A stretch of DNA of 64,000 bases, from positions 12,524,001 to 12,588,000 of the forward strand of contig NC_081331.1 in the NCBI RefSeq assembly GCF_022539665.2, given 5' to 3'. This document shows, in pieces, positions 14,616 through 48,406 of the stretch; position 1 is the stretch's first letter, and each line of letters starts with the position of its first letter. The notes beneath the pieces are model-generated. The model worked only from the letters and a program-made list of their open reading frames with translations, did not search any database and had not been told where the DNA came from. The stretch comes from Daphnia carinata. Lineage: Eukaryota. Both the position numbers and the translations under genes were made by a program.

Positions 14616-17600
14616 CTAATCATCGTCGGGTGAGTTTGCGTGGCAAGGCGGGACTGGTGGTTCAACTTTAGTGATCCGCTGCAAGTCAAAGTCGATATCC
14701 TGACTATCAACGGGACCAAGAACTAGAGCAGCGCGGAATAAAGATTCTGCCGACCACGCAAACGGAATCCGCGGAAAACGGGCAGTCTGAGTGACGGATG
14801 TTTGAAGGCCCATCCGAAGCAAAAGTAGTCTGAAGAGGCTTGAATTCAGTGCTGAAGCTTCGTCCACCGTCCATGGAATTATCGGACAGGGCAATCTCAT
14901 TTGAAGACTCAGACATGCAACTAGATTGCGGAATTCTTCATTGACGTACGTACCCAAACGGGCGGAACAGGCTACCAATAAAGACTTCTGAATCCAACGT
15001 AGTTTTTGCTGATAGCCTGTTCAAAAAAAAAGAGAAGAAAGTGAAGGAAAATGTAATATTTAAAATGAATTTAGACCAGAAGCCACAAGTTGGGTTTTTA
15101 GTATTTGAAGCTCGGCAAGCTCGGCCTCTATAAAAGAAGGACTTTTGCAAGCAGTTGACTCTCTCTGGGCGTCGAAGGGAATTTGCTTATCCTGATCAGG
15201 AGTTCTGGGGGGCGACCCTTCATAGAAGCAGCCAGTCTTAGTCTGATGGTCTCGCATAAATTTGCGCACAACGTATTCTATAAGGTCTTGCCAATTTTCA
15301 CACAACTAAACGAGAAACAAAATCAAATGAACCATCCCTACAAAATTACAAGCGTTACTAAACGTGAATACCTTGAATTCGCTAGCCCAAATTTGGCTGA
15401 AATTGCGCAAAATAACAGGATCGCACAAGAGGTCAACTTGACCTAGATCAATGCCGACGTGGTGCAACACCGTAAAAATGCAATCGTTGACGAAAGAGCC
15501 GTTTGTCTTAAAATCTCTGAGGGCAGTTCCATATCGATCTATTATCGTCCTGCAACAAAATTGTTTTAAATGTTCAGAAATATCAAAGCTCTTCTCAGAC
15601 GCCGACTGCTTGATAGCACGTTCGAGTGAAAGCAAAAGTATGTGGTTAGCTTTGATGATTTCACAGAGATATCGCCGACCCTGGTTGTTGGGGTTGAACA
15701 GTCGTAATCGGAGCAAAAAGAGTTGACGAAGATCACTGATGACTAGCAAGTAATCTCGTAGTTGGAAAATCTTTGTTTGCTTCGATTCAGCCAAAGTACA
15801 ATACGCATCCAATGCTCGAAGATATTCGCCGATGGCGGTTATTCCTAGATGCAGACGTCGCATAAACGGTGTTAGATCGAGTGACGGTTGTAGTGAGTTA
15901 ACTTCAAATTCTTCAGTCTGGTGAATCGCATCCCACGTCAGATGACAAAGAAGATCAATAACAAAAATATTTTTCAAGCACTTCGCATCCAATTTTAATT
16001 GTGACGCGAAGCGCATGAAATACGTGATGAGCCATAAGAAAAATGACTTCTCCGAATGCAGTAAAACATCCTGTTGTATCAGTTTTTGGTGTAGTTCGTT
16101 CACTAACGCGTTGAAACCTATTGCGTTAAATACAATAGGGAAATTGAGATAGTTGTGCCTTTGAAATGAGAGCTTAGATCCTAACCATTTTGCAAAAAAA
16201 TTGGTATGAATTCTACCAGAAGTTGCGATACATCTTCCTCCGACGGATTTCGTATAATCTTCGTTTGGATGTGGTGCGATTCACTGCCTTTGTTCTCTTT
16301 TTGCTTGTGATTCGTCCCTTTCAATTTTTGTTCCTCCTTTCCTTTTACAATACATTCCCTAAAGAAAATTTGAACTTTATCTCAATAGAGTATGAATCAA
16401 CAACTGCATGATGAACCTAAAACCCAAAATTACACGTTTATTCCATTTCTATCATCAACTCGCGTTAATACTGAAGGTTCATCTTTTCGTGATGTTTCGG
16501 AGTAATTAGCAAACCTTAAACCAGTATCCTCTGCTGCTGCTGATATAAGTTAAAAATTAAAAATAAAGTTTTTCAGGGACATAGCTTGTTATATAACTAC
16601 CTGATGGACTGGCAATAGCACCATCGTTCGGCTACGATCCGGTTCGGTTGTCACATGCAAAAATGGAAGTTTGTTGCTTGAATACATTATTCAACCGGTT
16701 CTTAGCTAAGCGGAGTTTGGAAAAAAAAAACTTATGCTGATATAAGTGTTTCTCACGTCATCATTTGTAGATGAACAGGCCGTATATGCTCTCCTGTCTA
16801 GCAGCTTTTCCATGATCTCTGCCGGATGCCCTTGGTAGAGGAGAGCAATGAGTTGAACGATTGTCACGACCCATTTGCCCTGCAAATATTTTGTTTCGTC
16901 TAAGTTGTCTAACTCAGCTCAAGACAGACGCTTATATTCAAAACTCTGTATTTGTGGGGAAAACAGGTTCGATGCCCACGTTACGAACACTTTTGCTTTG
17001 GGCTACTGTGACCAGTTCGATCGTCAACGAAGTAAAGAAAATGACGGGATGTCGTGATCAATTGAACTACCATATAAGCAAAGAATCCGAAATTGGCGCA
17101 ATAGCTTAAAAAAAAAATCGGTCGTGGTTACGTAACAGCACAATGCGTATTTACAATATTTTCCTGGAATTATGAGACACCACTTCTTGGTTTCAACTTC
17201 AAGTGGCCCACGTCGCTATATTAGTATATTCAAAGCAAATTCCACCCAAAATGTAAAAGGAGGAAAAGGTAGGGTAAGCCAGAAACTTGTACCGTTGTCC
17301 TTAGTTGTTGTTGGCGACCAGCAGTATCTTAAAATTTCCTTTATTTTGTTCGGCCACACCCTGGTCGCTCTTATTTATCTACTCGATAAGCCAAACCCCC
17401 TCACAAATAGAAGCCAAATTTTGAATAGCGTTAACTCTAAATTGCTTACCTTCTGCGAATATGTAAGCAAACTGAGGAGAATTTGGTCAAATCCTTGTGC
17501 GAATAATACCCAAATGAGTCGCCTTTGCTGCGAGCCGTTAGTTCCAGTATCGTGTCCCATAGGATGCATCCATTCTTCAGTTTTCGTAGAATTGAAAGGT

Positions 17601-18467
17601 CGTTCAGGAGCGTATAGGACATTACGGATAAGCAACAGTAAATAGTTGATGAATTCACAATCTCTGGTAGTTAATGGCTGCAAGGAAAGAAACCCGGTTA
17701 ACTGCGCAATTTGGAATAAACAAGCAAATTTGCTAAAAGCTTCTCCGTTTTACATTTGTTAAACAGAATGAAAGCTGATCAACGACAGCTTGGGTAACTT
17801 TAGGGTCCAAAAACGCATCTTTGGCATTGTAGAGAAATTGCGTAAACTCATAGACCATAAACTTTGGCATCGAGATGTCATCGGGCATCGCGTTTGTGGG
17901 AATCAGGCAACTGACGGGCACTGTTAACCAAGTAAGCAGTCTACAGAAAAATAATCGTTAAAACAGTGAACGTTATTTACATTTCAATATGTCTGAACAA
18001 TCCTGATGCTAACTGATGTGGCCAAAATGGACGAAAATCTGAACTTACTCGACTGTTGAACGAATAATGCTAGGTTGATTCACTTGGACCAAAATAGGGA
18101 TAAGATCCTAAAACGAACATACTGAAATTAGAATGGTCTTTCTTTTGCAACATAAAATCAGTCAGGCTAAACCGTTGTATCGACCTTATTCAAGATGTCC
18201 ATAAAGATGAGGGCACGTCGAAGAGCACGCGTATTGGGATCCTCACAATTTATTTTGGCGTTCATTTTCTTTAGGCAAGCTGTCGGTGAAAATGTAACAA
18301 AGAGGATTGAGAAATTATTGTGGAAAGTGGATGAGCATCGTACAGATCTATTATGAATTTTTCTTACCCAAGCATTCGTCGCTTATGTAATATTTATCTC
18401 GGTAGAAAGTGCCGAGTGGTAGAAGGGACAAGCAAGGGAAGCCTACGGTTAACGCCATCCAGTCCAT
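14616..18467 (-). CDS. tim: Timeless (TIM1-type) paralogue, ~12 exons, roughly 830 aa by manual splicing
   Basis: N-terminus MDW..LG..Y.ISDECL..CLKKM..EDPNTRALRR; LLLIRNVLYAPE; WVVTIVQLIALLY; PSEEDVSQLLVEF; SFFLWLITYFMRFA; RRLHLGITAIGEYL; C-terminal PAB-like FRLLLLRMGL..FPRIP. Confidence 0.85.
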
Positions 18468-19498
18468 AATGTACGTTAGACAACACCGTTTTGGGCTGCT
18501 CAGTCAACAAAGAACTTTGCTGCCAACACCAATAATGCTGTAATAAGACTGAATACCACCACCGAAGATGACGACTCTGAAGGACACACCAAAGAATGTT
18601 TGGATGAATTTCTTTTATACCAAAAGAAAGAAAGCAACAAAACTTTAATGGGCGTAATACTTGAACCGGTTTTCTCAATCGTAAGGGGTGTATGCTGCTA
18701 AAGGGGAAACCTCACTGCAACATCGGAGCCAATTCTAGTAAGCATATATAGCCTTTCTAATGCATTTCTTTATCCTTAGTATGGCTTGACGTTGTCTACA
18801 TGCGTGAAACCGATGCATCTCGTTAACTCAAATGGAAAATTTTCCGTTGACGACCGGTTCTCTGATCGAGGCGAGAAACGATCTTTCCAGACGTCCTTCG
18901 GTAGACGTATGAACTACGATTCCGATCAGTTGAACATTATATACGCTTTTGATTTTTGACTCATTTCATTCCCGATTTATTTGTGGTTTCGTATCAAATA
19001 AACTAATGACGCTACCCTACGCCATACGTGATACGGAACACCCATCTTATTATTAGCATGGCTGATTGAATTTATTTAAAAAATAACACTGGAAATGCCG
19101 AGTCGATAAAAGAAAGTTGTGATTTGAATGTCGATACTGGCAGAGCGAGTACAGCTTACCATTTATAACTCGTTATGCGGTGACGACTCTAATGCGCGAA
19201 AGCGTTCGTTCCACGGTAGAACAGGATCGACCAACATAAGGACTGCGGTATAAGTAAAGGTAATTCCAAGTACAATCCTCTTAACAAACAGTACATACAT
19301 GCACGGATAATGTTATGTTGGAAAAGAAGTTACAAAGGAAATATAATTTTCGAGGGTTTATCGTACGAAATTAAACATTAGTAATGAAATTCATTTAATT
19401 AGCAACGTAACAATTTCAATGAACATGAACAACAACACAATCGCTTTTTTTTGTTCCCAAAATCTTGCCCGTTTTACATACATCTGACTTCCTTTGTT

Positions 19499-22371
19499 TT
19501 AAGGATTTTCAGTTTTTCCTTCTAACTGTTCGCTTTCGGACTCGTGAAGAACTTCCTTTGCTGTATGCTTCTCCAATTCAGGCTTGTGATCTACCCCTAC
19601 ATGGTTCCATGGTTGTTCTTCTCCAGATGCAAAAACTGTGTAAACTACAAACTCGAGGACGAAAACCGCTGCCGTTGTGAAAAAAATAATTTGCCATTGG
19701 CCCAATGTTTGCTAGAAGAAAAAATTTGTATCTTTATCTGTTGCTAAGCAATCAGTATTTACATAATATACTGACATTTCCGTGAGTGAGCTGTCCGACA
19801 AAGACGGGAACGATGAATCCCGGAATCGTAGCCGCCGTGTTGGTCAGAGCCATTAATGTGCCGGCGTAATTCGGAGCAATATCGACGTGATTGGTCAAGA
19901 AGCCGCAATACATTCCGGCAACAAACATGGTACCAAGAGTCATCAACGCCACGGCGGCTTGGCGATCACATCCCACCAAGCTGACGCCGATAAAACAAGC
20001 GGCAGGGAACAAGGAGGCTGTTTGCGGGTTTAAAAATGTCGGTATGATCATTTAGCCATTAGTTTCAATCTTCAGCTGAATGTTTCGATTGTTCACACTG
20101 GCGGATAAAATTGTTCATTCGGATACATACCGATAGCTGTAGATAATTTGCGTACAGTCGTCGTGGTAATCCATCCTTTGCCTTTTGCCCAATCTAGACG
20201 ATTGCTCCACATAATGCTAAATATCCATAGACACACGTACGGAATCGCAGATAACCCAGCGTTCTGTTGCAAGTATTGGAAAGGTTAGTTGGATTTGATG
20301 GTTTAGCTCGTGAATTTTCAAATCACGGCTAATAGATTTAGTTTGGTTTACCTGACTGATGTTAAAGCGTAAGATGGCCTTCATGTAGGTGGGTAGTTCA
20401 ACTAACAGCATATACCATCCAAAATTACTGCACGAATGAGCAACCAGAATAGCCCAGAACGGACCGGAAGTAGCGAGAGCTTTCCACGGGATAGGCAAAT
20501 TCTTTTTTAAGGCAAAAACAGCAACACAAAAAAACATAGAAATAAATCAAAATCAAATCATCGTAACAGTAATCCGTTTTCTAGTACCGGATGGCCGTGG
20601 GCTCCGTGATGGCCTTGTTTTTTCAAGTGTTCCTTGTGGAATTTAGGATGTTCGTGATGTTTGTGTCCGGCGTGCCATCCGTGCCATCCGTGGAATCCAT
20701 GCCACCCGTGGAAGCCGTGCCAGTGATGTCCCTGATGGCTATTTCTTCTTTTCTTAGCAATAGGCTTGTCTGAAATGACGGGAGTCATGACAACAACGGA
20801 CCCTTCTGCGATGTTGGAATCTTCTAATTGTGCTGCTTCCTTCGGTGCTTCATGACTTTCGTGGTCATCGTGATGCATGGACGTTTCAAAAAGCTCCAAC
20901 TCCACTGGATGGATGCGCGGATGATCTTCAGGTGAGTCGAAGACAAATATCAGCCATAAAACGCACCAGATCATAGCGAGACCTCCTTGGACGTAAAACA
21001 CCGATTCCCAGCCGAGTGCAGCGGCTAAGATACCGGAAAATGGCAGCGAGATGACTGTACCTAGCGCCATGCCTGCCGTTTTAAAATTTCTTTATTAGTT
21101 TGAACGCTATAAACACTGCATTAAAATGTAGATGGAATAATATTTACCAGCGTAAGCCAACGACGACATCAGGTTGCGCTCTTGCGGTAAAACCCATTTG
21201 GTCAACATAACGTGAATGGCTGGTAGAGAAACTCCCTATTTTGAAAAGAAACGATTTACAGTAAAAACCAAACAAGGATATTGGAAATGAATGAGGAAAT
21301 CGTAATAAAATAATTGGATCTTACAGCGCCCAGCCCTTCGATGAAACGGACAACGAGGACGGCGATGTAACTTATGTTGGCAGCCAACGGTGTTAAAATA
21401 GTGAAAACAACATTGACGAGAACAGATGCCCAGATGACCCACTTGGCCGAATACTTCTCCGCTATCATTCCACCGGGAATCTGAGTCAGAAGGTAGCCCC
21501 AAAAGTAGGCGCTCAATACCAATCCTTGAACAGGTTCGGGCCAAGCGAATGGTCCATCCTATGCAAAGCAATACAAAGAGATTAGACCGATCAATAATTA
21601 AGAGAATTATAAAGAAAAATATACTATTCATATGTCGATTTTGTTATACCTGTATGGTGACAGTTACGTTGGAATGGGAAACTGGAGCTGCACAAGCAAA
21701 CTCCTGTGGAGCAGTTCCGTTGTCTTTGGTGCTACCATAATGCCCACCGTGAGAGACTTCCGATGCCGCCATAGACGCAAGCTCAGTTGAATTGATCTTT
21801 ATAAATGAGGGAGAAATAGAGATATATATAATTAATATTTATGTTGGCTGGAACGTGAGTTGAATTATTCTTACCATGACGACAATCGCCACACTCAAGT
21901 TCACCTGTAGAACATCGTTATGGGATTCCCCATGGAAAACGAAAAAGAAATCATCTATTAGTGTCGTACTCCTATCTTATGTGATCTATATATATCTATC
22001 GATATATATATATGTATCTATCTATGTCAAAATATTCTAGTGCAGCAGCACTTACCTTCAGTCCATAAATAATCGCCAGGCCGATAGAGACCAGCGCTGT
22101 GAAGATGTAACGAGCTGGGATCAAAGCTGAAAATGACGAAAAAGATCAAAATTAATTTAGGAAATCGCAGGATCGAACTTGCCAAAATAATGACTTGTTA
22201 TTTTTATTAATCTTCGAGGTTAAATTGTTATTACAAATTTTAGAATCATGAAACTCTGGCTGTAAAGCAACCGAAAACTGCCACACTTACATTTTGAAAC
22301 TACTAAGAATATCAATAAAAAGATTTAAATAAATGTATATGTTTCATTGTTTACTTACGTCCTTTAGCCAT
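19499..22371 (-). CDS. SLC17/sialin-like MFS transporter, tandem copy 2, with a His/Trp-rich central loop
   Basis: Same exon layout as copy 1 (MAKG | ..PARYIF..IYGLK | [10 protein letters not shown] | ...); ORFs 21256-21522, 20558-21070, 19752-20051, 19499-19705. Confidence 0.9.
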
Positions 22372-23748
22372 GTTGGCTTCTTCTTCCTTAATAGACAACT
22401 TCGATTGGTTTAGCGTTAAAGATATCAGGAAAAAGAAATAAGCCCGGAAAACAAGAACAAGCGTCTGTTCACGTTGAGTACTCTGTAACCTCTGAAGAGT
22501 GGAGGACGGTTGCCAATTAAACATCCTTTTTGACTTGCAGTAACCTTTTAAAGATTTCCCTTCCGCAGGGCACAAGGTGAATCGCAAGTAGTATCTAGCG
22601 ATCAAAAAAAAATTTAGTTGAATAAATTAAGCGTCATGATAAATTTGATACGAGAGAGATGACGTGAAATTTGTCACGTCGAATCATATTATTTGCTCAA
22701 ATGTATTTTGGTTTTTAATCTTTCTCCCGATGCAATAAAAACAAAAGATCAAAGAGATACGTGGATTTCACGTGACGGCCATCGTTGTTGTTGCCATGTC
22801 AGTTGCGGGCCAGCAACTATACACACATAATCCTCGAGAATGCGATTGGAACGAGTAAGGTGTAAGCGTGCTCTGAAAAGACAAGTGGAAAGTAGAATGG
22901 TGTTCGTGACTAGAGGCACACCAACATTTCAAACCTTATATGGGTGAAAGGTTCTGTGCCTCCGTGAACATCAATAACAGAACGAATGTGCATATTGGCT
23001 GCCTGATTATCTAGTATAACTGTTAAACCACCGCCAACAAGGATTCTAATTAGGGAAAATCAATTAGACGCAAAAATGCTTTGTAGATTCATCAAGTGAG
23101 ATCAAGGACATGTTGGTCGATAGACGAATCCATCTTCCCTACAGAACAAGAAAGCGAATTCACCGAATCGTTTCTTATTGTTTGCCAACATTTATCATCA
23201 AACAAGTTCGTGCCAACTTGAATTCCCCTGAATTACAGGGAGCTAGAAAGACACAACTTCGAAAAAATACCACTAGTCATCATCATTTGCAAACGATTAT
23301 GAATTCTATGGCAGAGAATAAACAATTATTTTAGGCAATCCCAGTACGTGTACACGCGTCCTCCTCGTGTCCTACCATTCGAATTTCTCCAGGCGCATTC
23401 CCTATGAACCCGCAGTGATTCGAATTCCAGTCGTAAGCCACTACAAATGAGAATGGCCCAGCGCCAGTTTCTAACACTCGTGACGAAAAAAGGTTTCCCA
23501 CGTGTTCGGGAGCTGATTGGGATCCTCACGTGCGAATGACATAGCACTTTTACGAACTTTTTCTCATTTATAACGTTCCTGTTTGATGAACCCCAAGCGT
23601 AGCACATTTTACGAGCCTATAGTTCTATATACGAACAGGTATGGGAACAACTTTGTAGGTTTACTTCGAATACATAGAACGTAAAATTGGAATACAAATC
23701 AAATTTTTTTTTTAAAGAAAAAGAAAAGTCTTTTAAGTGTTATTTGGC

Positions 23749-25143
23749 CTAGTAAGTGCCTCTTGGATCGTATTTCTGTAAGCTGGTTTTAGCAAGACTA
23801 GCAAGACTACGTGCACCAGCAGGTCCGTTCTCGTTTTCATTGAACGCAGCCTAAAAAACGATGAGGTAAGTGTGTCAATTTGGTATTCAAATCCAAGATT
23901 TAAAATGAATTACCCATTTAACGTCAATGTCTTGGAGAGCAGTGAGGAGATTCCGCCAAAGGGGCACGTTGAGTGCAAGCTTCCTACGGGATTTGCTCCA
24001 CGAATTCTCTAACCATGGAACGGCCCATTCATCAATAAACTTGAGAAGATATTCCGAATTGGTATGTATCATCAATCGTTCTATGCCTGTTAAAATAAAA
24101 AATCAAATCCAGTTAAAAGCTGTTGCGGCCCTTAAGTTCAACGTAATTGTATCGGAAGTGTAAACTGACCATGTTTCTTCGCTTGCTGGATTGCAGTGAT
24201 TGCCGCTATAATTAAGGTTGCATTGCATGTGCGAGGCTCAATTTTACTGACGTTCCTAGAAATAACAATTTTATTTTACGACCATAAATTCGAGGCGGAT
24301 GTGTTTTGTAGGGGTCGAGAATTCTCTTGAATTCTTCTTGATAACAAACGCGTTGTAAAAGTTTGTTTACTTGGAATCATTTTCACCGAAGAAGACACCA
24401 TATCCCATTTGTTTGGTTTCATCATCTCCCGAGATTGCAAGGTAAACTTTGACGTAATTACACGATTGCAAACTGTTGCGTATAGATTGTTTCTTCCTAA
24501 GATCAATCAGCCATTCAACGTCTTGGACCTCTTCAATTACACGCGACCAAGACGGAAATCCAGTCATATAATTGTGGAAACGGGGACCAATTTCTTTACG
24601 AATAACTTCGCGTAAACCGTCAATCAAGTAAGCCAACTTGACACGGAAACAAAACGTTTTCAGCGATTTATCTGTGATCACAGCCAAACCCAGAGCTTTG
24701 ACCAAAAGCGAATCGATTTCTGCAGCGAATGTCGTAACTGACTGATGGGGTTTTTGTCTGAGTTGATCGAGTTGTCCCAGAAAATAGTACTTGTCGTTAT
24801 GCATGAATTCTTCAATCATTAAATCACGCCAGTCCCAGTAATCTTCGACGTAAGTCAATTTCTTCCGGTGATACATCAAGGCATCGCCTCTTAGCCTCAT
24901 GATAAATTTTTGCAACATAATATCTTCATGCCATCCAAGTAGTGATGCCGCTCTTTCGCATTCTTGAAACCAATCTTCAACCAGAGCGCCATTTTCGGAA
25001 CCAGAGAAGCTCGGAAGCGTCTTCCTCGGCTTGTAAATAAACTTTATGTTCGTCGGTATGATGATCGTGTTATATCCGTCGATATCTGCTGTCAGCACGG
25101 TGGGTAACTGTACAGAGTGGTAAGCATTTCTCCTGCTACCCAT
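23749..25143 (-). CDS. Chimeric gene: Ty3/gypsy-like Gag capsid domain fused to an RNase H1-like domain lacking catalytic residues; exons 25143-24371, 24255-24170, 24086-23914, 23850-23749 (377 aa)
   Basis: Exon 1: LPSFSG..VEDWFQECERAA..GW..RLRGDAL..W..L..EF..L.QL.Q...QSVTTF (retrotransposon Gag CA pattern), then VKVY..GYGVFFGE. Spliced on: NVS..AAITAIQQAKKHG | IERLMIHTNSEYL..W...W..N.W..N..LW..L..IDVKW | ..ARSLA (RNase H1 pattern). Three GT-AG introns give 1134 nt with no internal stop. Confidence 0.8.
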
Positions 25144-25354
25144 TCCGTATTAATTTTTTAAAGCTTCACAGCTGGTCTTCTTCGTGGCTGTTGTAAAGAC
25201 AGAGAAATAAATTAAACAAAACCATGTCAAAACGAACGAAATAAAGCTGTCAAAGTTTTAGCGAGAGCTAGCTTTTAAAGAAGTCAAACTTCGGTTTCGA
25301 TCAGATTTCGTGTTTTTATGACAGTCAACAACTTTTTAGTGTGTATCACAAAGC

Positions 25355-26408
25355 AGTGGCGGGTAAAGAGGTAGTCCTCCCTAGAAATATTTTAACCATC
25401 CCCAATAAATGAAGCTGGATATACAGTTGAGTTGTAAAGGCTCACTTGCACTATTTCTCTTAGAAAAACAAAAAGACCAAAAAAGCAACCAAGGAAAATA
25501 CACGCGTCCAATTTCGTGGAGCTCCCAACACTAACCAAAGCTTAACTGTTCATACAGCAACATATAGAGGTCTTGCGCAACATGGTGACTAATACGCTAA
25601 TGTGCTTATATGCGTTATACTTTTAAATGTTTGTGTTGATAAGCAATTTTACGTCGAGCTTCTGTATAATTTTTTGTTTTTAATTTTTACTCGATACTTT
25701 TGGTTTCCTGAACTATTCGTTTTACTCAGTGACTACTATTTATTGTATTACTGCGTCATTACGCGTTCCTTTGAAAAAATGGGATCTAAAGCAGCCATGA
25801 AATGACTGCAGCAAGTGGGTAATGCGTAATAACGAAACCAACTCGAAAACAAGTGTTTACAAAGTCCTTGTGCAAAAAGTGAAAGTGACAAAAGACAAGT
25901 CTAAAATCCATTTCATTTTTAAAGATTTACAATAACAACCTGTCTGTATCCCAAACGATTGTGGTCTACCATTAAAAACAAACACAAAAAAATCTGAGTC
26001 GCTTGAAATCAAAATGCCTCAACAGTTCGTACTTACGGTGCTGCAATATGATCGTAGTTTTGCTGTTGGTAAACTAACACTTTTTATGATGACGTAGCAG
26101 AGCGAGGAGGACGATCTTTTCACGTAGCAACACACTGGTGGCAGAAACACGACTGAGTCACTCGTTGGCTTGTTGGGAACATAAAATGGAGGACTGAGAG
26201 GGATCACCGTACTGGCCGTTTAAATAGAAGGCGGGGTGAAGTGAAGTAGAGAAAATTATAGTCCCTCATTTCTCATAAGGAATATACTTACAAAAAAAGA
26301 ACAACCTTAGAGAAATGTCTTTTATCTCCTTCACTGGTAGTCCCTAGAGGACTACGTTTCTTATTACAAGTCCGAATCACCGAGGGAGTAGAGGACTACC
26401 TGCCGCCA
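25355..26408. mobile_element. Possible decayed non-autonomous DNA transposon (hAT-like termini)
   Basis: Left end cagtggcgg..aggtagtcctc (~25355-25379) is inverted at gaggactacctgccgcca (~26391-26408); an extra ggtagtcc/ggactac palindrome lies at ~26336-26356. No clear TSD. Confidence 0.3.
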
Positions 26409-26723
26409 AAGGGTTTTGTAAACTTTCACACGCCTGCCTGCCAAGGTTGCAGATTCCCAATTGTAAAGAAATTTTTTTTAAGATACCAGCATCAATCAGT
26501 CGCAAGTGTCACGTTTAGAAGCTAACGTGTGATCCAATTTTTGTTGCTGTTAACTACAGATAAACTGCAATATTGTTTCATAAATCCCCCTACCATTCCC
26601 AGGATTCATTTGGGACATGCAATCCATGAACTGCGTTCTCACACTGTACTAAAGAATTTAGTCATTTGAAATATAGAAAACAAGATTTAAAGAGGTTGGA
26701 TGTTGTATTTCTTATCGTTCCAA

Positions 26724-29057
26724 CTAGACACGGGTTCGTTTGTTCAGTTGTTGGGTCTCAGCTGCGCGAGGCCGTCCCTTAGCTCCTGCTCCGGTAGTAT
26801 ATGCTTGATTCCACGGTTGTTCTTCCGCAGAGCTGAATAGTGTAAAGACAATCAATTCCACCAACAAAATAGCGGCCGTCGTGAAGAAGACAATCTGCCA
26901 CGAATGGACGGTTTGCTATTGTGCAAAACAAGAAAGGTTACTTCATTTCTTGATCGGTGATTTGCTATTCATTTCTGCTTCACGCTTACATTTCCGTGAG
27001 TGAGGGCGCCGACAAAGACGGGCACGATGAAACCCGGAATAGTAGCGGCCGTGTTGGTGAGGGCGAGCAAAGTTCCGGCGTAGTTGGATGCCAAGTCTGT
27101 AGGATTAGCCAGTATGCCACAATACATGGCAGCCATGAACATGGTGCCGAGAGACATGAGGACTACAGCGGTAATTCGGTCGCATCCGGCCAAGCTAACA
27201 CCAATGAAACATAACGCCGGAAGTAACGAAGCTTTGCAAAAATACGAGTCACAATCAGGGAAATTTCCAAGTAATAATTCTCATTTTGGACCACACTTCT
27301 ATTACTCACCGACAGCTGTAGACAGCTTCCGGACGGACGTAGTGTTGATCCATTTCTTGTTTTTGCTGTAATCCATCAAGTTACTCCAAATGATACTGAA
27401 CACCCACAGGCAAAGGTAAGGTACGGCGGACAACAGAGAGTTCTGTTTATCATCAGAAATGTTAAGATTTCTTTGGATTTTGATAGAATTTCGGCAACCA
27501 TTACTTTGCCAATGTTGAAACGAAGGATGTGCTTCATGTAAGTTGGTAATTCAACGAGTAACATATACCATCCGAAATTATTGCACATGTGCGCAACTAG
27601 AAGGGCCCAGAACGGAACTGAAGTCGCAATGGCCTTCCATGGTACGGGTAAGTTCTATCAATTAACATTAGTGATGTATTTTTTGGCATAACTTGAAAGT
27701 TGTTGAGCGGCCGGATTTTAGGAAACGTACCGGACGTTTAGCACCACCATTTCCCATGCATTTTTCGAAGAGATTTCGCTCAGCCGGATGGATGCGTGGA
27801 TGATCTTTGGGCGAGTCAAACACGAGTAAGATCCACAAGATACACCAAATGGACCCTAGTCCACCTTGAACGTAGAAAACCGACTCCCAGCCGAATTTTT
27901 CCGCCAAAATTCCAGAGAACGGAAGGGCAATAACAGTCCCCAATGACATTCCTGAAAAACAAAAACAACCAAATATAATCGCAAACACGAGTAGGGATCG
28001 TACGGAATACTAACCAGCGTAGACGAGAGAAGATATTTTGTTGCGCTCGTTTGGCGGTGCCCATTTAGACAACAAGACTTGAAGGGCCGGCATAGAAACT
28101 CCCTGTTAAACAATAAATGTTTTCTTACAGAACGTTAAGTAGCGAATTCATTATCCAATTCTGGAGTAATGAACGTACGGCGCCCAATCCTTCGATGAAA
28201 CGGACGACCAACACGGCGATGTAACTGATATTGGCAGCCACAGGTGTCAAAAGGGTAAACAGTACGTTGACAAACACAGCAGCCCAGACGACCCATTTGG
28301 CTGAAAACATTTCGGCCATTCTTCCGCCGGGAATTTGAGTCACAATGTAGCCCCAAAAATATGCGCCAAGTATCAATCCTTGGATCGGTTCTGGCCATGG
28401 AAACGGGCCATCCTGCGTTTATGAAATACTCTATTTATTTTTTCCTGTAAAAAAATAAATACTACAGCAGGAATTTAGCCTCACTTGAGCGGAATCCGTC
28501 TGGTTTGTGTTTGTATTTGCTGGGCAAGCAAATTCCGAATTGCTACTCTCGTTCAAATGGGTATCGTTATTATGGCTATCGTGTGTTAATGCCATCTCGC
28601 TTAGAGCTGTACTGTTGACCTATATGCACAATCAGTGTTGTAACAATGAGTTGACACAGACAATTGATTACTGCTGATAGTACGTCAACGCGTCACTCAC
28701 CATCACGACAATAGCCACGCTCAAGTTGACCTAAGGGTGGCAATCACGTACGAAGATCAGACAGAAGAAAAAAAAAATTAACCAATCCATCATCATTAAG
28801 TCTAGTTGTTTTGTTTAGAATATAATAAATCGTCAAATACTTTTAAGCCATAGATGATTGCAAGACTGGCAGATGCCAAGAATGTGAAAACGTACCTAGC
28901 CGGCAGGCAAGCTGTGGAATAAATTAAGACAGAGTGCTTATAACGAATAAACAGACACCATGGCGGTTGTCGCTATCAACACACGCACACCTAAACAGAT
29001 CCACAGTAGTTTCACAAATAGATGCCTATAGACCTACTTACGGCCTCCTCTAGTCAT
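26724..29057 (-). CDS. SLC17/sialin-like MFS transporter, tandem copy 3
   Basis: MTRGG | CLPARYVF..IYGLK | [10 protein letters not shown] | ... [50 protein letters not shown]; stop at 26724-26726. Confidence 0.9.
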
Positions 29058-29752: not shown

Positions 29753-32209
29753 TTAAGCACGGCTCGTCTGGTTCAATTTCTCTTCTTCGGGGGTCAGGTG
29801 GGTGCCGTTCTTTCCTTCAGCTGCAGCACTGTATGCTCGGTTCCAGGGTTGTTCTTCACCCGAAGCCAGTAAAGTGTATACAATCAATTCTACCAGTAAA
29901 ACTGCAGACGTCGTGAAGAAGATGATCTGCCATTGGCCGAGACTTTGCTGTAAATGGATGGTGAGCAATCATTAGCACGGAAATATCGTAGAAGATGTTA
30001 TGCAACTTACGTTTCCGTGTGTCATTTCACCGACAAAAACAGGCACGATGAAGCCTGGAATTGTGGCCGCTGTGTTGGTAAGAGCCATCAGAGTACCAGC
30101 ATAGTTGGATGCAATGTCGATATGATTGGAGAGGAAACCGCAATACATTCCGGCGATGAACATGGTACCGAGGGTCATGAGAGCTACAGCCGCTTGACGA
30201 TCGCAACCAGCAAAACTGACACCGACGAAGCACAAGGCCGGAAGGAGAGATCCTGATTGATGTATATGTAGTGTAACAAGAAGAATGAAAATGATATGTC
30301 ATCCTAGTGACTCACCGACGGCGGTGGAGAGTTTGCGAACGGTCGTCGTCGTGATCCATCCCTTGCTCTTGGCCCAATCCAGGCGGTTACTCCAAATGAC
30401 ACTGAAGAGCCAAAGCGAAAGGTATGGGACGGCAGAAAGTCCAGCATTCTAAAACATAGAGAAATTTTACAAAATGCAACATTCTAATTCTTGTTGTGTT
30501 TGATGTAATCATACCTCGCTGATATTGAATCGGAGAATGTGCTTCATGTAGGTAGGCAATTCGACGAGCAGCATGTACCAACCGAAATTGCTACAGGTAT
30601 GGGCCACAAGGATGGCCCAGAAAGGTCCGGATTTCAGGAGGGCTTTCCAAGGGACAGGCAAGTTCTGCAGATTCCTTCGTGATTAATTGCTTGATCTATT
30701 TTTAGGGTCCTATTTTCAACTAACCGCATGTCCGTGACCGCCACCACCACCTTGCATCGAAGATTCAAAGAGCTCCAACTCTGCCGGATGGATGCGCGGA
30801 TGATCTTGAGGGGAATCGTAGACAAAAATGAGCCATAGAAGACACCAAATCATGGCCAGACCTCCTTGCACGTAGAAAACTGCTTCCCAACCAAACGCAG
30901 CGGCCAAAATTCCGGAAAATGGGAGAGAGATGACGGTACCGAGCGCCATTCCTATCGATCGCCAATGGAACTTTAATCGTAATACGAACTCAATTTTGTC
31001 AGCGATTAGACCTTACCTGCATAGGCCAAGGAAGAGATCATGTTTCTCTCCTGTGGAAGAGCCCATTTTGTCAACATAACGTGAATGGCCGGAAGAGAAA
31101 CGCCCTGCATTGAACATTATTCATGTAAGATGTCCACTTTGTTTTGCAGGAAAAAATAAATATAATTATATTACAGCGCCTAATCCTTCAATGAAGCGAA
31201 CAACAAGAACGGCTATGTAACTAAAGTTAGCCGCCAGAGGTGTAAGAATCGTGAAGACTACATTAATGAGAACGGAGCCCCAGATGACCCACTTGGCAGA
31301 GAACATTTCAGCAACTCGACCACCAGGAATTTGAGTCAGAATATAGCCCCAGAAATAGGCTCCTAATACCAATCCCTGCGTCGGCTCTGGCCACGCGAAA
31401 GGTCCGTCCTGCATCAACAATACGTTTATATTTATATTTGGATGACCTTCATCATTGAAAATAATTGTAACAAAAAAAAAAAATGGTTTCTTCCGCGTAC
31501 TCCAAAAGGAATGCATTTTCAATTAGGCAAATAGGGGTTGTTCGATCACCTGTACAGCTACTGTAACGTTGGACCCTGTGTCGGGAGCTGGACAAGCGAA
31601 TTCGGGACTGACTGATGCTGATTCATTTGTTCCGTGATGACTGTTATGATGGTCATCAGAAGCCAATGCCATCAAAGCCAATTCGGTCGAGTTGATCTAA
31701 CCAGATAAACACATAAATTAATCAGTTCAATTCGAATAAAATTGGCAAAAGAGTCTGTTCATTTACCATGACGACGATGGCTACACTCAAGTTCACCTGG
31801 AATAGTAAACAAAACAGAAAAAGAAATGAATGTTTTTTTTTTTCACCAGAATGATATAAATCAGAAATAAAGACTATACTTTCAATCCGTAAATGATAGC
31901 CAAGCCGATAGAGACTAAAGCTGTGAAAATGTAGCGAGCCGGGAAGCATGCTTCAAAAAGGAAATAAAAAATTAGAATAATTAGTATTTCTTATGTGAAA
32001 GCAAAAATGGTATAGTCTTTTAATTAACCAAACAACGTAACGCGAACCTCAACAGAAACCACATTGCCTAAAATGGAATCGTCATCAATAAATATTGATT
32101 GGCTTCACATGGTTCTAAATCAACCCGACACCGGTGCTGCCGGTCCGTATCAAGCTACAGTTCAAATTTCAATAAAAAAATGGAAATACTCACGTCCGCC
32201 TTCAGCCAT
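29753..32209 (-). CDS. SLC17/sialin-like MFS transporter, tandem copy 4
   Basis: MAEGG | [13 protein letters not shown] | [10 protein letters not shown] | ... [41 protein letters not shown]. Confidence 0.9.
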
Positions 32210-47352: not shown

Positions 47353-48406
47353 ATGCCTGCATTAGCAACTGACAACCAAATTGAGGCTGTTTCCAAAGTA
47401 CTCAATGACACCAGCAGACCACTAAAAGAACGCTTCCGGGCCTTGTTTACCCTACGCAACCTTGGCGGACCCAAAGCTGTTGAAGGCATTTCATCCTGCT
47501 TCACTGACTCTTCAGCCCTATTGAAACACGAACTAGCATACTGCCTAGGACAGATGCAAGATCCTTCGGCTATTCCTGTGCTTACGTCTGTACTAAAGGA
47601 TGTTCAGCAAGAACCGATGGTTCGCCATGAAGCCGGTATTGCACTAAACACATTCATTTCATATCCCTGTATAAAAATGCTGTATAAAAATGGTCTACTT
47701 CAAATAGGTGAAGCTCTTGGTGCAATCGGTAGCGCAGAATCTCTGCCCGTCTTGCAAGATCATTGTCAAGACAAGGTAATAGAAGTTGCTGAGACTTGCC
47801 AACTGGCAGTCCAACGTATAAACTGGCTGCTTGATGAGAAGAAAAAATGTGAGATCGATAGTGCATACCAGCAAAATCCGTATTGTAGCGTGGACCCAAC
47901 GCCATCAACGTCAGTAAAAGAAACGGAGGAATTGAAGACTATATTACTAGACGAAACTTTGCCTTTATTTGAACGATATCGTGCCATGTTTGCCCTAAGA
48001 AACAAAGGAGATGTTGAAAGCGTAAAAGCCCTGGCCGAAGGTATTAGAAATAATAAATTTTTAAAGTTGATTACCAAATGTAAGAGTATGAAATGCAGGT
48101 TTAAAATGCAATAGTGCGTTATTTAGGCACGAAGTTGCCTATGTCCTTGGACAGATACAGAGCCCTGCCTGCATCAAGCAACTGATCGAGCGGCTCGAAC
48201 TTGCTGACGAAAACGAAATGGTTAGGCATGAATGCGCTGAGGCTCTCGGATCCATTGCCCAGGACGAGTGCCGGGAAATTCTCCAGAAATATGTGGAAGA
48301 CTCTGCTAGGGTGGTCAAAGAAAGTTGTGAAGTGGCGTTGGACATGTGTGAATACGAAAATAGCCCAGAATTCCAGTATGCTAATGGATTAACTAACTTA
48401 GACTGA
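47353..48406 (+). CDS. DOHH: Deoxyhypusine hydroxylase (HEAT-repeat), 3 coding exons
   Basis: [13 protein letters not shown]; four HE motifs ([30 protein letters not shown]); SVDPTP; C-terminal EFQYA. Confidence 0.96.

Follow-up and report, generated by a model that had tools for sequence, protein, structure and literature searches.

A Daphnia gene that probably joins a Ty3/gypsy-type capsid to an RNase H1-like domain stripped of its catalytic acids

LOC130690963 of Daphnia carinata is most probably a maintained, intron-containing host gene that encodes a Ty3/gypsy-type capsid joined to a dead RNase H1-like domain. The gene lies on the minus strand of the 64-kb stretch of genomic DNA analysed here (hereafter the window). 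Its four coding exons, joined at GT-AG sites, give 1134 nt, that is 377 aa and a stop codon, and the spliced product is identical to XP_057369829.1, a 377-aa D. carinata protein recorded as uncharacterised. A reading of the same DNA made from its letters (the sequence-only reading) had placed the splice sites at 24371/24255, 24170/24086 and 23914/23850; all six positions proved exact, and the frame is open over the 377 aa. The features of the locus are given below, with comparisons to L001, a related locus that is 51% identical and the sole one confirmed among 308 pattern matches.

26037..26156, minus strand: likely non-coding first exon; the 3' boundary, set by a GTAAGT donor (26036), is well placed; the 5' boundary is guessed from an initiator-like TCAGT (26156)
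25188..26036, minus strand: likely 5' UTR intron of 849 nt with a donor and a polypyrimidine-AG acceptor; the junction is inferred from a relative's RNA contig
24371..25143, minus strand: coding exon 1, aa 1-258, with a short N-terminal arm, the capsid, the linker and RNase H strands one to three
24490..25038, minus strand: predicted Ty3/gypsy-type capsid with both lobes, aa ~36-218, without a zinc knuckle behind it
24256..24370, minus strand: intron 1, 115 nt, phase 2; same site in L001
24170..24255, minus strand: coding exon 2, RNase H helix A
24087..24169, minus strand: intron 2, 83 nt, phase 1; spliced out in relatives' RNA contigs
23914..24086, minus strand: coding exon 3, RNase H core and tryptophan-rich basic protrusion; matches PF00075 at 6.3e-4 by itself
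23851..23913, minus strand: intron 3, 63 nt, phase 0; same site in L001, and protein P0032 ends just past it
23749..23850, minus strand: coding exon 4, with the final helix of RNase H and the stop codon
23809..24438, minus strand: positions of the four RNase H catalytic acids, all replaced according to alignments

The capsid and RNase H parts both begin in coding exon 1 with no intron between them, and all three coding introns are confined to the RNase H part, as had been claimed from the sequence. Gag had also been proposed as the first exon of the gene; it is indeed the first coding exon, but is likely the second exon, behind a non-coding one. The non-coding exon is suggested by a loose end (X13) behind 25182 that resembles 26055-26037, and the 5' layout of L001 is similar (donor at 340, acceptor at 1323, a shared 13-mer). 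In a relative's contig there are signs of another acceptor near 25867 and of an alternative, long 5' UTR. Upstream non-coding blocks are colinear in the contigs of relatives, where several short ones within 25600-26230 of the window are conserved. An AP-1-like site stands at 26160-26154, and another lies upstream in L001.

No LTR-like repeat was found between the flanks of LOC130690963, and by eye none of the 21 window ORFs of at least 150 aa resembled pol. Within the window, the earlier statement that protease, RT, integrase and LTRs are missing is therefore borne out. The 64-kb window contains no second copy of the gene; a weak tblastn match at 47752-48057 was rejected as a copy, belonging by eye to an unrelated HEAT-repeat-like gene.

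Pfam gave no capsid match for exon 1 alone or for the full LOC130690963 protein, and Retrotrans_gag was found in one of five relatives (2.3e-5). Structure-based searches placed the region among known capsids. For aa 30-222, Retrotrans_gag/Ty3_capsid clusters of the ESM Atlas ranked on top (0.93, 0.92), with structure TM of 0.50-0.60. An AlphaFold model of aa 31-225, built on a 39-sequence alignment, reached a pLDDT of 92.5; a full-length model from 5 sequences (pLDDT 39.8) was discarded as unusable. With the capsid model as query, each of the top twelve PDB rows in Foldseek was a capsid domain of dArc, PNMA2 or Arc, at a best E of 6e-4. A second aligner scored PNMA2 at Z 10.3 over 169 residues (rmsd 5.5) and the MOAP1 C-lobe at Z 9.0 over 103 (rmsd 2.6); such values are moderate for a helical protein, yet all listed rows are capsids and the sequence evidence is concordant. 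Overall, the model matches the dArc1, dArc2, PNMA2, Arc and Copia capsids, and its best viral match is a metavirus ORF1. Residues ~36-218 of LOC130690963 are thus predicted to adopt a two-lobed Ty3/gypsy capsid fold. The sequence-only reading had assigned the first ~220 aa to a Gag capsid and proposed a fold search with aa 35-220; AlphaFold with Foldseek, like the ESM Atlas, recovered a Retrotrans_gag/Arc-type capsid there, and the first ~35 aa lie outside the fold.

The two capsid lobes are conserved alike (mean 0.62 and 0.63). The zinc-knuckle pattern is absent from all 14 fusion proteins checked; some element Gags matched by the profile (P0034, P0052) run on into a zinc knuckle. Identity between the capsid of LOC130690963 and the nearest element Gags found is only about 20-30%. 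In viral contigs, the family profile detected only giant-virus RNase H (6 loci), and no locus was found there for P0026, a related fusion described below, or for the element Gag P0036.

Residues ~230-370 match PF00075 at 3.1e-9. Consistently, the family profile matched chain 2qk9, a Ribonuclease H1, best among PDB entries (2e-15), and the closest Atlas models are RNase H1. A search with aa 228-370, also proposed from the sequence, thus returned an RNase H1-type domain with its basic protrusion (PF00075, 2qk9), and the earlier RNase H1-like call stands for fold and sequence, although it had mentioned neither the dead active site nor the related clade in which the site is intact. In LOC130690963 the catalytic acids are replaced by A236 (24438-24436), L272 (24215-24213), N296 (24060-24058) and R358 (23811-23809). 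All four acids are missing in each of the four full-length members, and every one of 12 distinct family members lacks the first catalytic Asp and carries Ser238, indicating that the loss of the active site is old. T267, N326 and the protrusion tryptophans W311 and W316 are identical in the four full-length proteins; T267 and N326 align with residues taken to line the DNA phosphate pocket of human RNase H1, whereas R179, also assigned to that pocket, has no conserved counterpart in the family. The hybrid-binding domain PF01693 was not matched in any of five proteins, the N-terminus being taken by the capsid, and the dead domain is barely basic (K+R 19, D+E 16). These last three features make hybrid binding by the dead domain doubtful.

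Full-length relatives are of nearly constant length (377, 377 and 375 aa in D. carinata, D. magna and D. sinensis, respectively). Identity to LOC130690963 is 72-78% in D. magna and 61-63% in D. sinensis, and spans 38-78% when unassigned contigs are included. Over exon 1 the 12 distinct members of the family share 33-78% identity. A representative search (best 150 of 3937) contributed members down to 33% identical to one another, and most of their frames end at the intron 1 site or directly behind it, as would be expected from unspliced DNA. Among the matches in named genomes there is one named protein per species. None comes from the D. pulex group, which in a word-filtered search is no evidence of loss. 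L001 has three introns at the same codons and in the same phases, and the intron 1 site, judged by frame stops or read-through, also occurs in the wider family and in the active sister clade. A tblastx comparison of the L001 flanks with the window gave no coding match.

Against L001, dN/dS is 0.28 (dN 0.41, dS 1.49; bootstrap pN/pS 0.42-0.57), an approximate value because dS is near saturation; it is 0.21 for the capsid and 0.32 for the RNase H part. The dN/dS comparison proposed by the sequence-only reading thus points to purifying selection, with the frame kept in relatives. On a rough estimate from sequence, the family nevertheless appears to change fast between close species. The rough dN/dS against the D. 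magna-type allele is 0.3-0.7, and 102 differences were counted in 797 nt versus a relative, compared with mostly 7-9%, and in one case 15%, in the neighbouring transporter exons listed; domain identities also vary from lineage to lineage. The D. magna protein P0007 (XP_032777718.2) has 331 aa and lacks the last 46 residues. It may represent a nonsense allele or an assembly error, so that either the dead domain is dispensable or the assembly is faulty.

The LOC130690963 family is expressed and spliced in relatives. Contigs of 8 of the 24 listed sequencing runs were examined, all from relatives; no D. carinata run was found, and all 24 listed runs share only 0.05 of words. Intron 2 is skipped in an RNA-Seq contig of a relative (X18, joint 24170-24096), loose ends in two more runs (X1, X5) read into the start of exon 3, and two contigs (X5 record 14, X9 record 18) have, by arithmetic, a length fitting exon 1 plus spliced exons. 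Other relatives' contigs retain the start of intron 1. A check of junction reads had been suggested for all three introns; it bore out the skipping of intron 2 in relatives' RNA contigs, and introns 1 and 3 were not among the joints listed. The lack of contig cover over exons 3-4 is an effect of the 80% likeness floor and not evidence of absence. Further supporting splicing, 3 of 10 members of a D. magna cluster in Logan have continuous frames of 374-377 aa on contigs of 1.38-1.49 kb; the other 7 end at intron 1. Among the outcomes that had been named in advance as speaking against such a gene, those examined (capsid fold, dN/dS, LTRs in the window, splicing in relatives) all came out in its favour.

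An ordinary transposon remnant or decaying pseudogene, with a frame open by chance, would suit the dead active site, the truncated P0007 and the fairly high dN/dS between close species. However, frames and intron positions are kept across a dS of about 1.5 at a dN/dS of 0.28, spliced transcripts occur in relatives and terminal repeats are absent; we consider this explanation extremely improbable.

A sister clade carries only the capsid C-lobe joined to RNase H. It comprises P0026 and the four further clusters P0181, P0182, P0183 and P0185, found by a search of 980 candidates (five of its six hits). The proteins begin about twelve residues ahead of the C-lobe. The first catalytic Asp is kept in all five clusters and all four acids in both full-length ones; judged by these residues, the active site looks intact. 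Three of the clusters break at the intron 1 site; the frame of P0182 continues across that site and stops at the site of intron 2. P0181 aligns with LOC130690963 in a single colinear stretch over aa 129-344 (C-lobe, linker and RNase H) at 32% identity. Apart from self matches, the dead-domain profile scores highest against the P0181 cluster (97 bits, versus at most 90 for ordinary RNase H1 and 85 for P0026). In the C-lobe tree, 17 fusion C-lobes stand on one side of a branch and 33 element Gags on the other (support 96/79), a grouping possibly due to long-branch attraction. In the RNase H tree the dead and active clades are neither united nor set apart (a joint grouping is not rejected, p-AU 0.38); such trees were built with 85 rows from a quick search and with 26 rows from a careful one, from which P0041 and P0082 were dropped because the motif missed their domain start. 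The simplest reading is a single fusion that later diverged into a dead and an active branch.

The RNase H part likely derives from a cellular RNase H1 gene. All coding introns lie within it, which suggests a host RNase H1 gene as the donor, with gag replacing the hybrid-binding domain; human RNASEH1 presumably has introns at codons matching introns 1 and 3. The dead domain forms a long branch that is unplaced in the RNase H tree. An element origin of the RNase H is conceivable because elements with an extra RNase H1-like domain exist: two proteins of the mite Dinothrombium tinctorium (P0125, P0210) carry, behind gypsy-type RT and RT-RNase H, an additional RNase H1-like domain that looks active. 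The fusion could then have come ready-made from a retroelement with an RNase H1-like domain beside gag and gained its introns after domestication, a history that fits any function. The start of capsid and RNase H within one exon and the absence of a tie between the dead domain and the host enzyme in the tree would agree with this. The distribution of introns (three in 145 RNase H codons versus none in 220 gag codons) argues against it, as do the two intron sites common to the active clade, the two that we take to match human RNASEH1, and the lack of an RNase H match in all 44 Gag-only hits. We regard an element origin of the whole fusion as quite improbable.

With regard to function, we tentatively favour, at somewhat less than an even chance, a domesticated decoy that joins and spoils gypsy virus-like particles. 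A single in-frame fusion would have placed a gypsy gag in a duplicate of the host's RNase H1 gene, so that gag took the place of the N-terminal hybrid-binding domain and RNase H that of the element's zinc knuckle. Two branches would have survived, one with the C-lobe and an active RNase H, the other, represented by LOC130690963, with the whole capsid and a dead RNase H. The capsid of LOC130690963 would co-assemble with the Gag of related elements, and the 16-kDa dead domain, at the nucleocapsid position, would crowd the particle interior or clamp, but not cleave, the RNA:DNA intermediate formed in reverse transcription; cleavage of this intermediate would fall to the active branch. Whether both branches together represent natural capsid-targeted inactivation, the active one destroying the RNA:DNA intermediate in particles and the dead one co-assembling to jam or clamp, is more doubtful still. 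The decoy reading draws on the fast evolution of the family, since the rough dN/dS of 0.3-0.7 and the shifting domain identities would fit a conflict. Several precedents have been described: capsid C-lobes restrict Ty1 by interfering with particle assembly (PMC8458377, PMC10951436), cellular RNase H limits Ty1 hybrids and mobility, both of which rise upon its loss (PMC4214602), and engineered RNase HI fused to the Gag C-terminus inhibits MLV (PMC5035972). Against this reading, a capsid only about 20-30% identical to the Gags found may be too distant for co-assembly; restriction factors known to derive from capsids resemble their targets almost exactly. The signal of selection here is a raised dN/dS ratio, short of positive selection.

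Two other roles would draw on the same architecture. The protein could act like Arc, PNMA or PEG10, forming capsids or oligomers of its own in which the dead RNase H stands in for nucleocapsid as the nucleic-acid-binding part, and serving to carry or store RNA or as a scaffold, with no part in defence. Retention of both lobes at equal conservation, the long purifying selection, the missing zinc knuckle and an apparently single gene per species in named genomes are consistent with such a role, as are the dArc1, dArc2 and PNMA2 capsids as the closest folds, although the ranking of folds mirrors which structures have been solved. The rapid change between close species and a C-lobe-only sister clade unable to form a closed shell speak against it, and we think it possible but rather unlikely. 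Alternatively, the capsid would be an oligomerisation module only, as the capsid-derived SCAN domain is, and the dead copy would act as a multimerised reader or regulator of R-loops, either binding and shielding cellular RNA:DNA hybrids or tempering the active sister through C-lobe pairing. The capsid does occupy the usual position of the hybrid-binding domain of RNase H1, the sister clade retains just the C-lobe with an active-looking enzyme, and the substrate-side residues T267, W311 and N326 are retained; yet the whole N-lobe, which dimerisation would not need, is under equal constraint. We hold this role to be unlikely.

Several known systems resemble LOC130690963 in part. Domesticated Ty3/gypsy gag genes (Arc, dArc, PNMA, RTL/PEG10, SCAN, Crtg1) are described as sharing its two-lobed metaviral capsid, freedom from LTRs, expression and purifying selection (PMC8321522, PMC10516033). 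Its dN/dS of 0.28 falls within the range in table 1 of Wang and Han 2021, where 7 of 8 new genes are below 0.44 (PMC8321522). Two genes of that survey, Crtg10 and Crtg14, are fused to the host genes KELP and PEX14 (PMC8321522); LOC130690963 differs from Crtg-type genes in its partner, an intron-bearing RNase H1-like domain. In the mammalian RTL1/PEG11, too, a single domesticated protein unites a capsid and an RNase H that is likely inactive (PMC10516033). However, RTL1 retains the protease, RT and RT-type RNase H of the element in order, whereas LOC130690963 lacks pol, and its RNase H, interrupted by three introns, belongs to the cellular H1 type and has the basic protrusion. Ty1 p22/p18, DRT2 and Fv1 are likewise host- or element-encoded capsid pieces, and the C-lobe-only sister clade has the p18/DRT2 layout; these factors interfere with particles, lack an enzyme domain and closely match their targets, whereas restriction by LOC130690963 is putative. 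In engineered Gag-RNase HI fusions the RNase H sits at the Gag C-terminus, as in both Daphnia-type clades (PMC5035972), but those fusions are artificial and pair full-length Gag with an active enzyme, while in the naturally occurring LOC130690963 the enzyme part is dead. Eukaryotic RNase H1 (PF01693 plus PF00075) shares the fold and sequence of the catalytic domain; LOC130690963 differs in having a capsid instead of the hybrid-binding domain and no catalytic acids.

A domesticated capsid-pseudo-RNase H gene with an active-type sister clade is apparently undescribed. Full-text searches, outside which most subscription papers fall, found no paper naming LOC130690963, the locus ids of its relatives or a Daphnia gag-RNase H gene, nor any description of Gag domestication in a crustacean or in fusion to RNase H1. 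The portions consulted of PMC3597677, PMC9194440 and PMC5413961 held nothing further on a Daphnia capsid-RNase H gene. Wang and Han 2021 counted 14 co-options, only events above the family level, with none in crustaceans, and the words Daphnia, crustacea and RNase are absent from its main text (PMC8321522). Invertebrate Gag domestications are rare in that survey, amounting to dArc and one beetle gene (PMC8321522).

Active and dead versions of the same capsid-RNase H chimera constitute a paired natural test, and knock-outs are routine in Daphnia. The Gag-RNase H fusion design was engineered as an antiviral in the 1990s. If LOC130690963 restricts gypsy, it would be a transposon defence in which a protein brings a host nuclease domain into the particles, something so far known only from engineering; if it forms capsids of its own, it would add a third independent case of an Arc-like invention, one with a novel type of module for binding cargo.

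LOC130690963 is located within a minus-strand tandem array of transporter genes (~18400-22600, ~26700-28500, ~29900-31000+), which by eye we take to be of the SLC17/sialin type. The copy at 20558-21091 carries a long insert rich in histidine, in which an H-G-F/W-H-G motif recurs. Elsewhere in the window, a 324-aa intron-free frame on the minus strand (15306-16280) resembles by eye part of what is presumably a Timeless-family protein. The RNase H searches also returned proteins of other architectures. P0078, P0094, P0061 and P0051 have RNase H1-like domains, possibly element-borne, in long low-complexity proteins, one of which by eye continues from RNase H into an AP endonuclease-like part. P0025, P0027, P0028, P0033 and P0037, from nematode, Euglena and other sources, contain RNase H domains in tandem, three or four per protein, and in several the active sites are degenerate.
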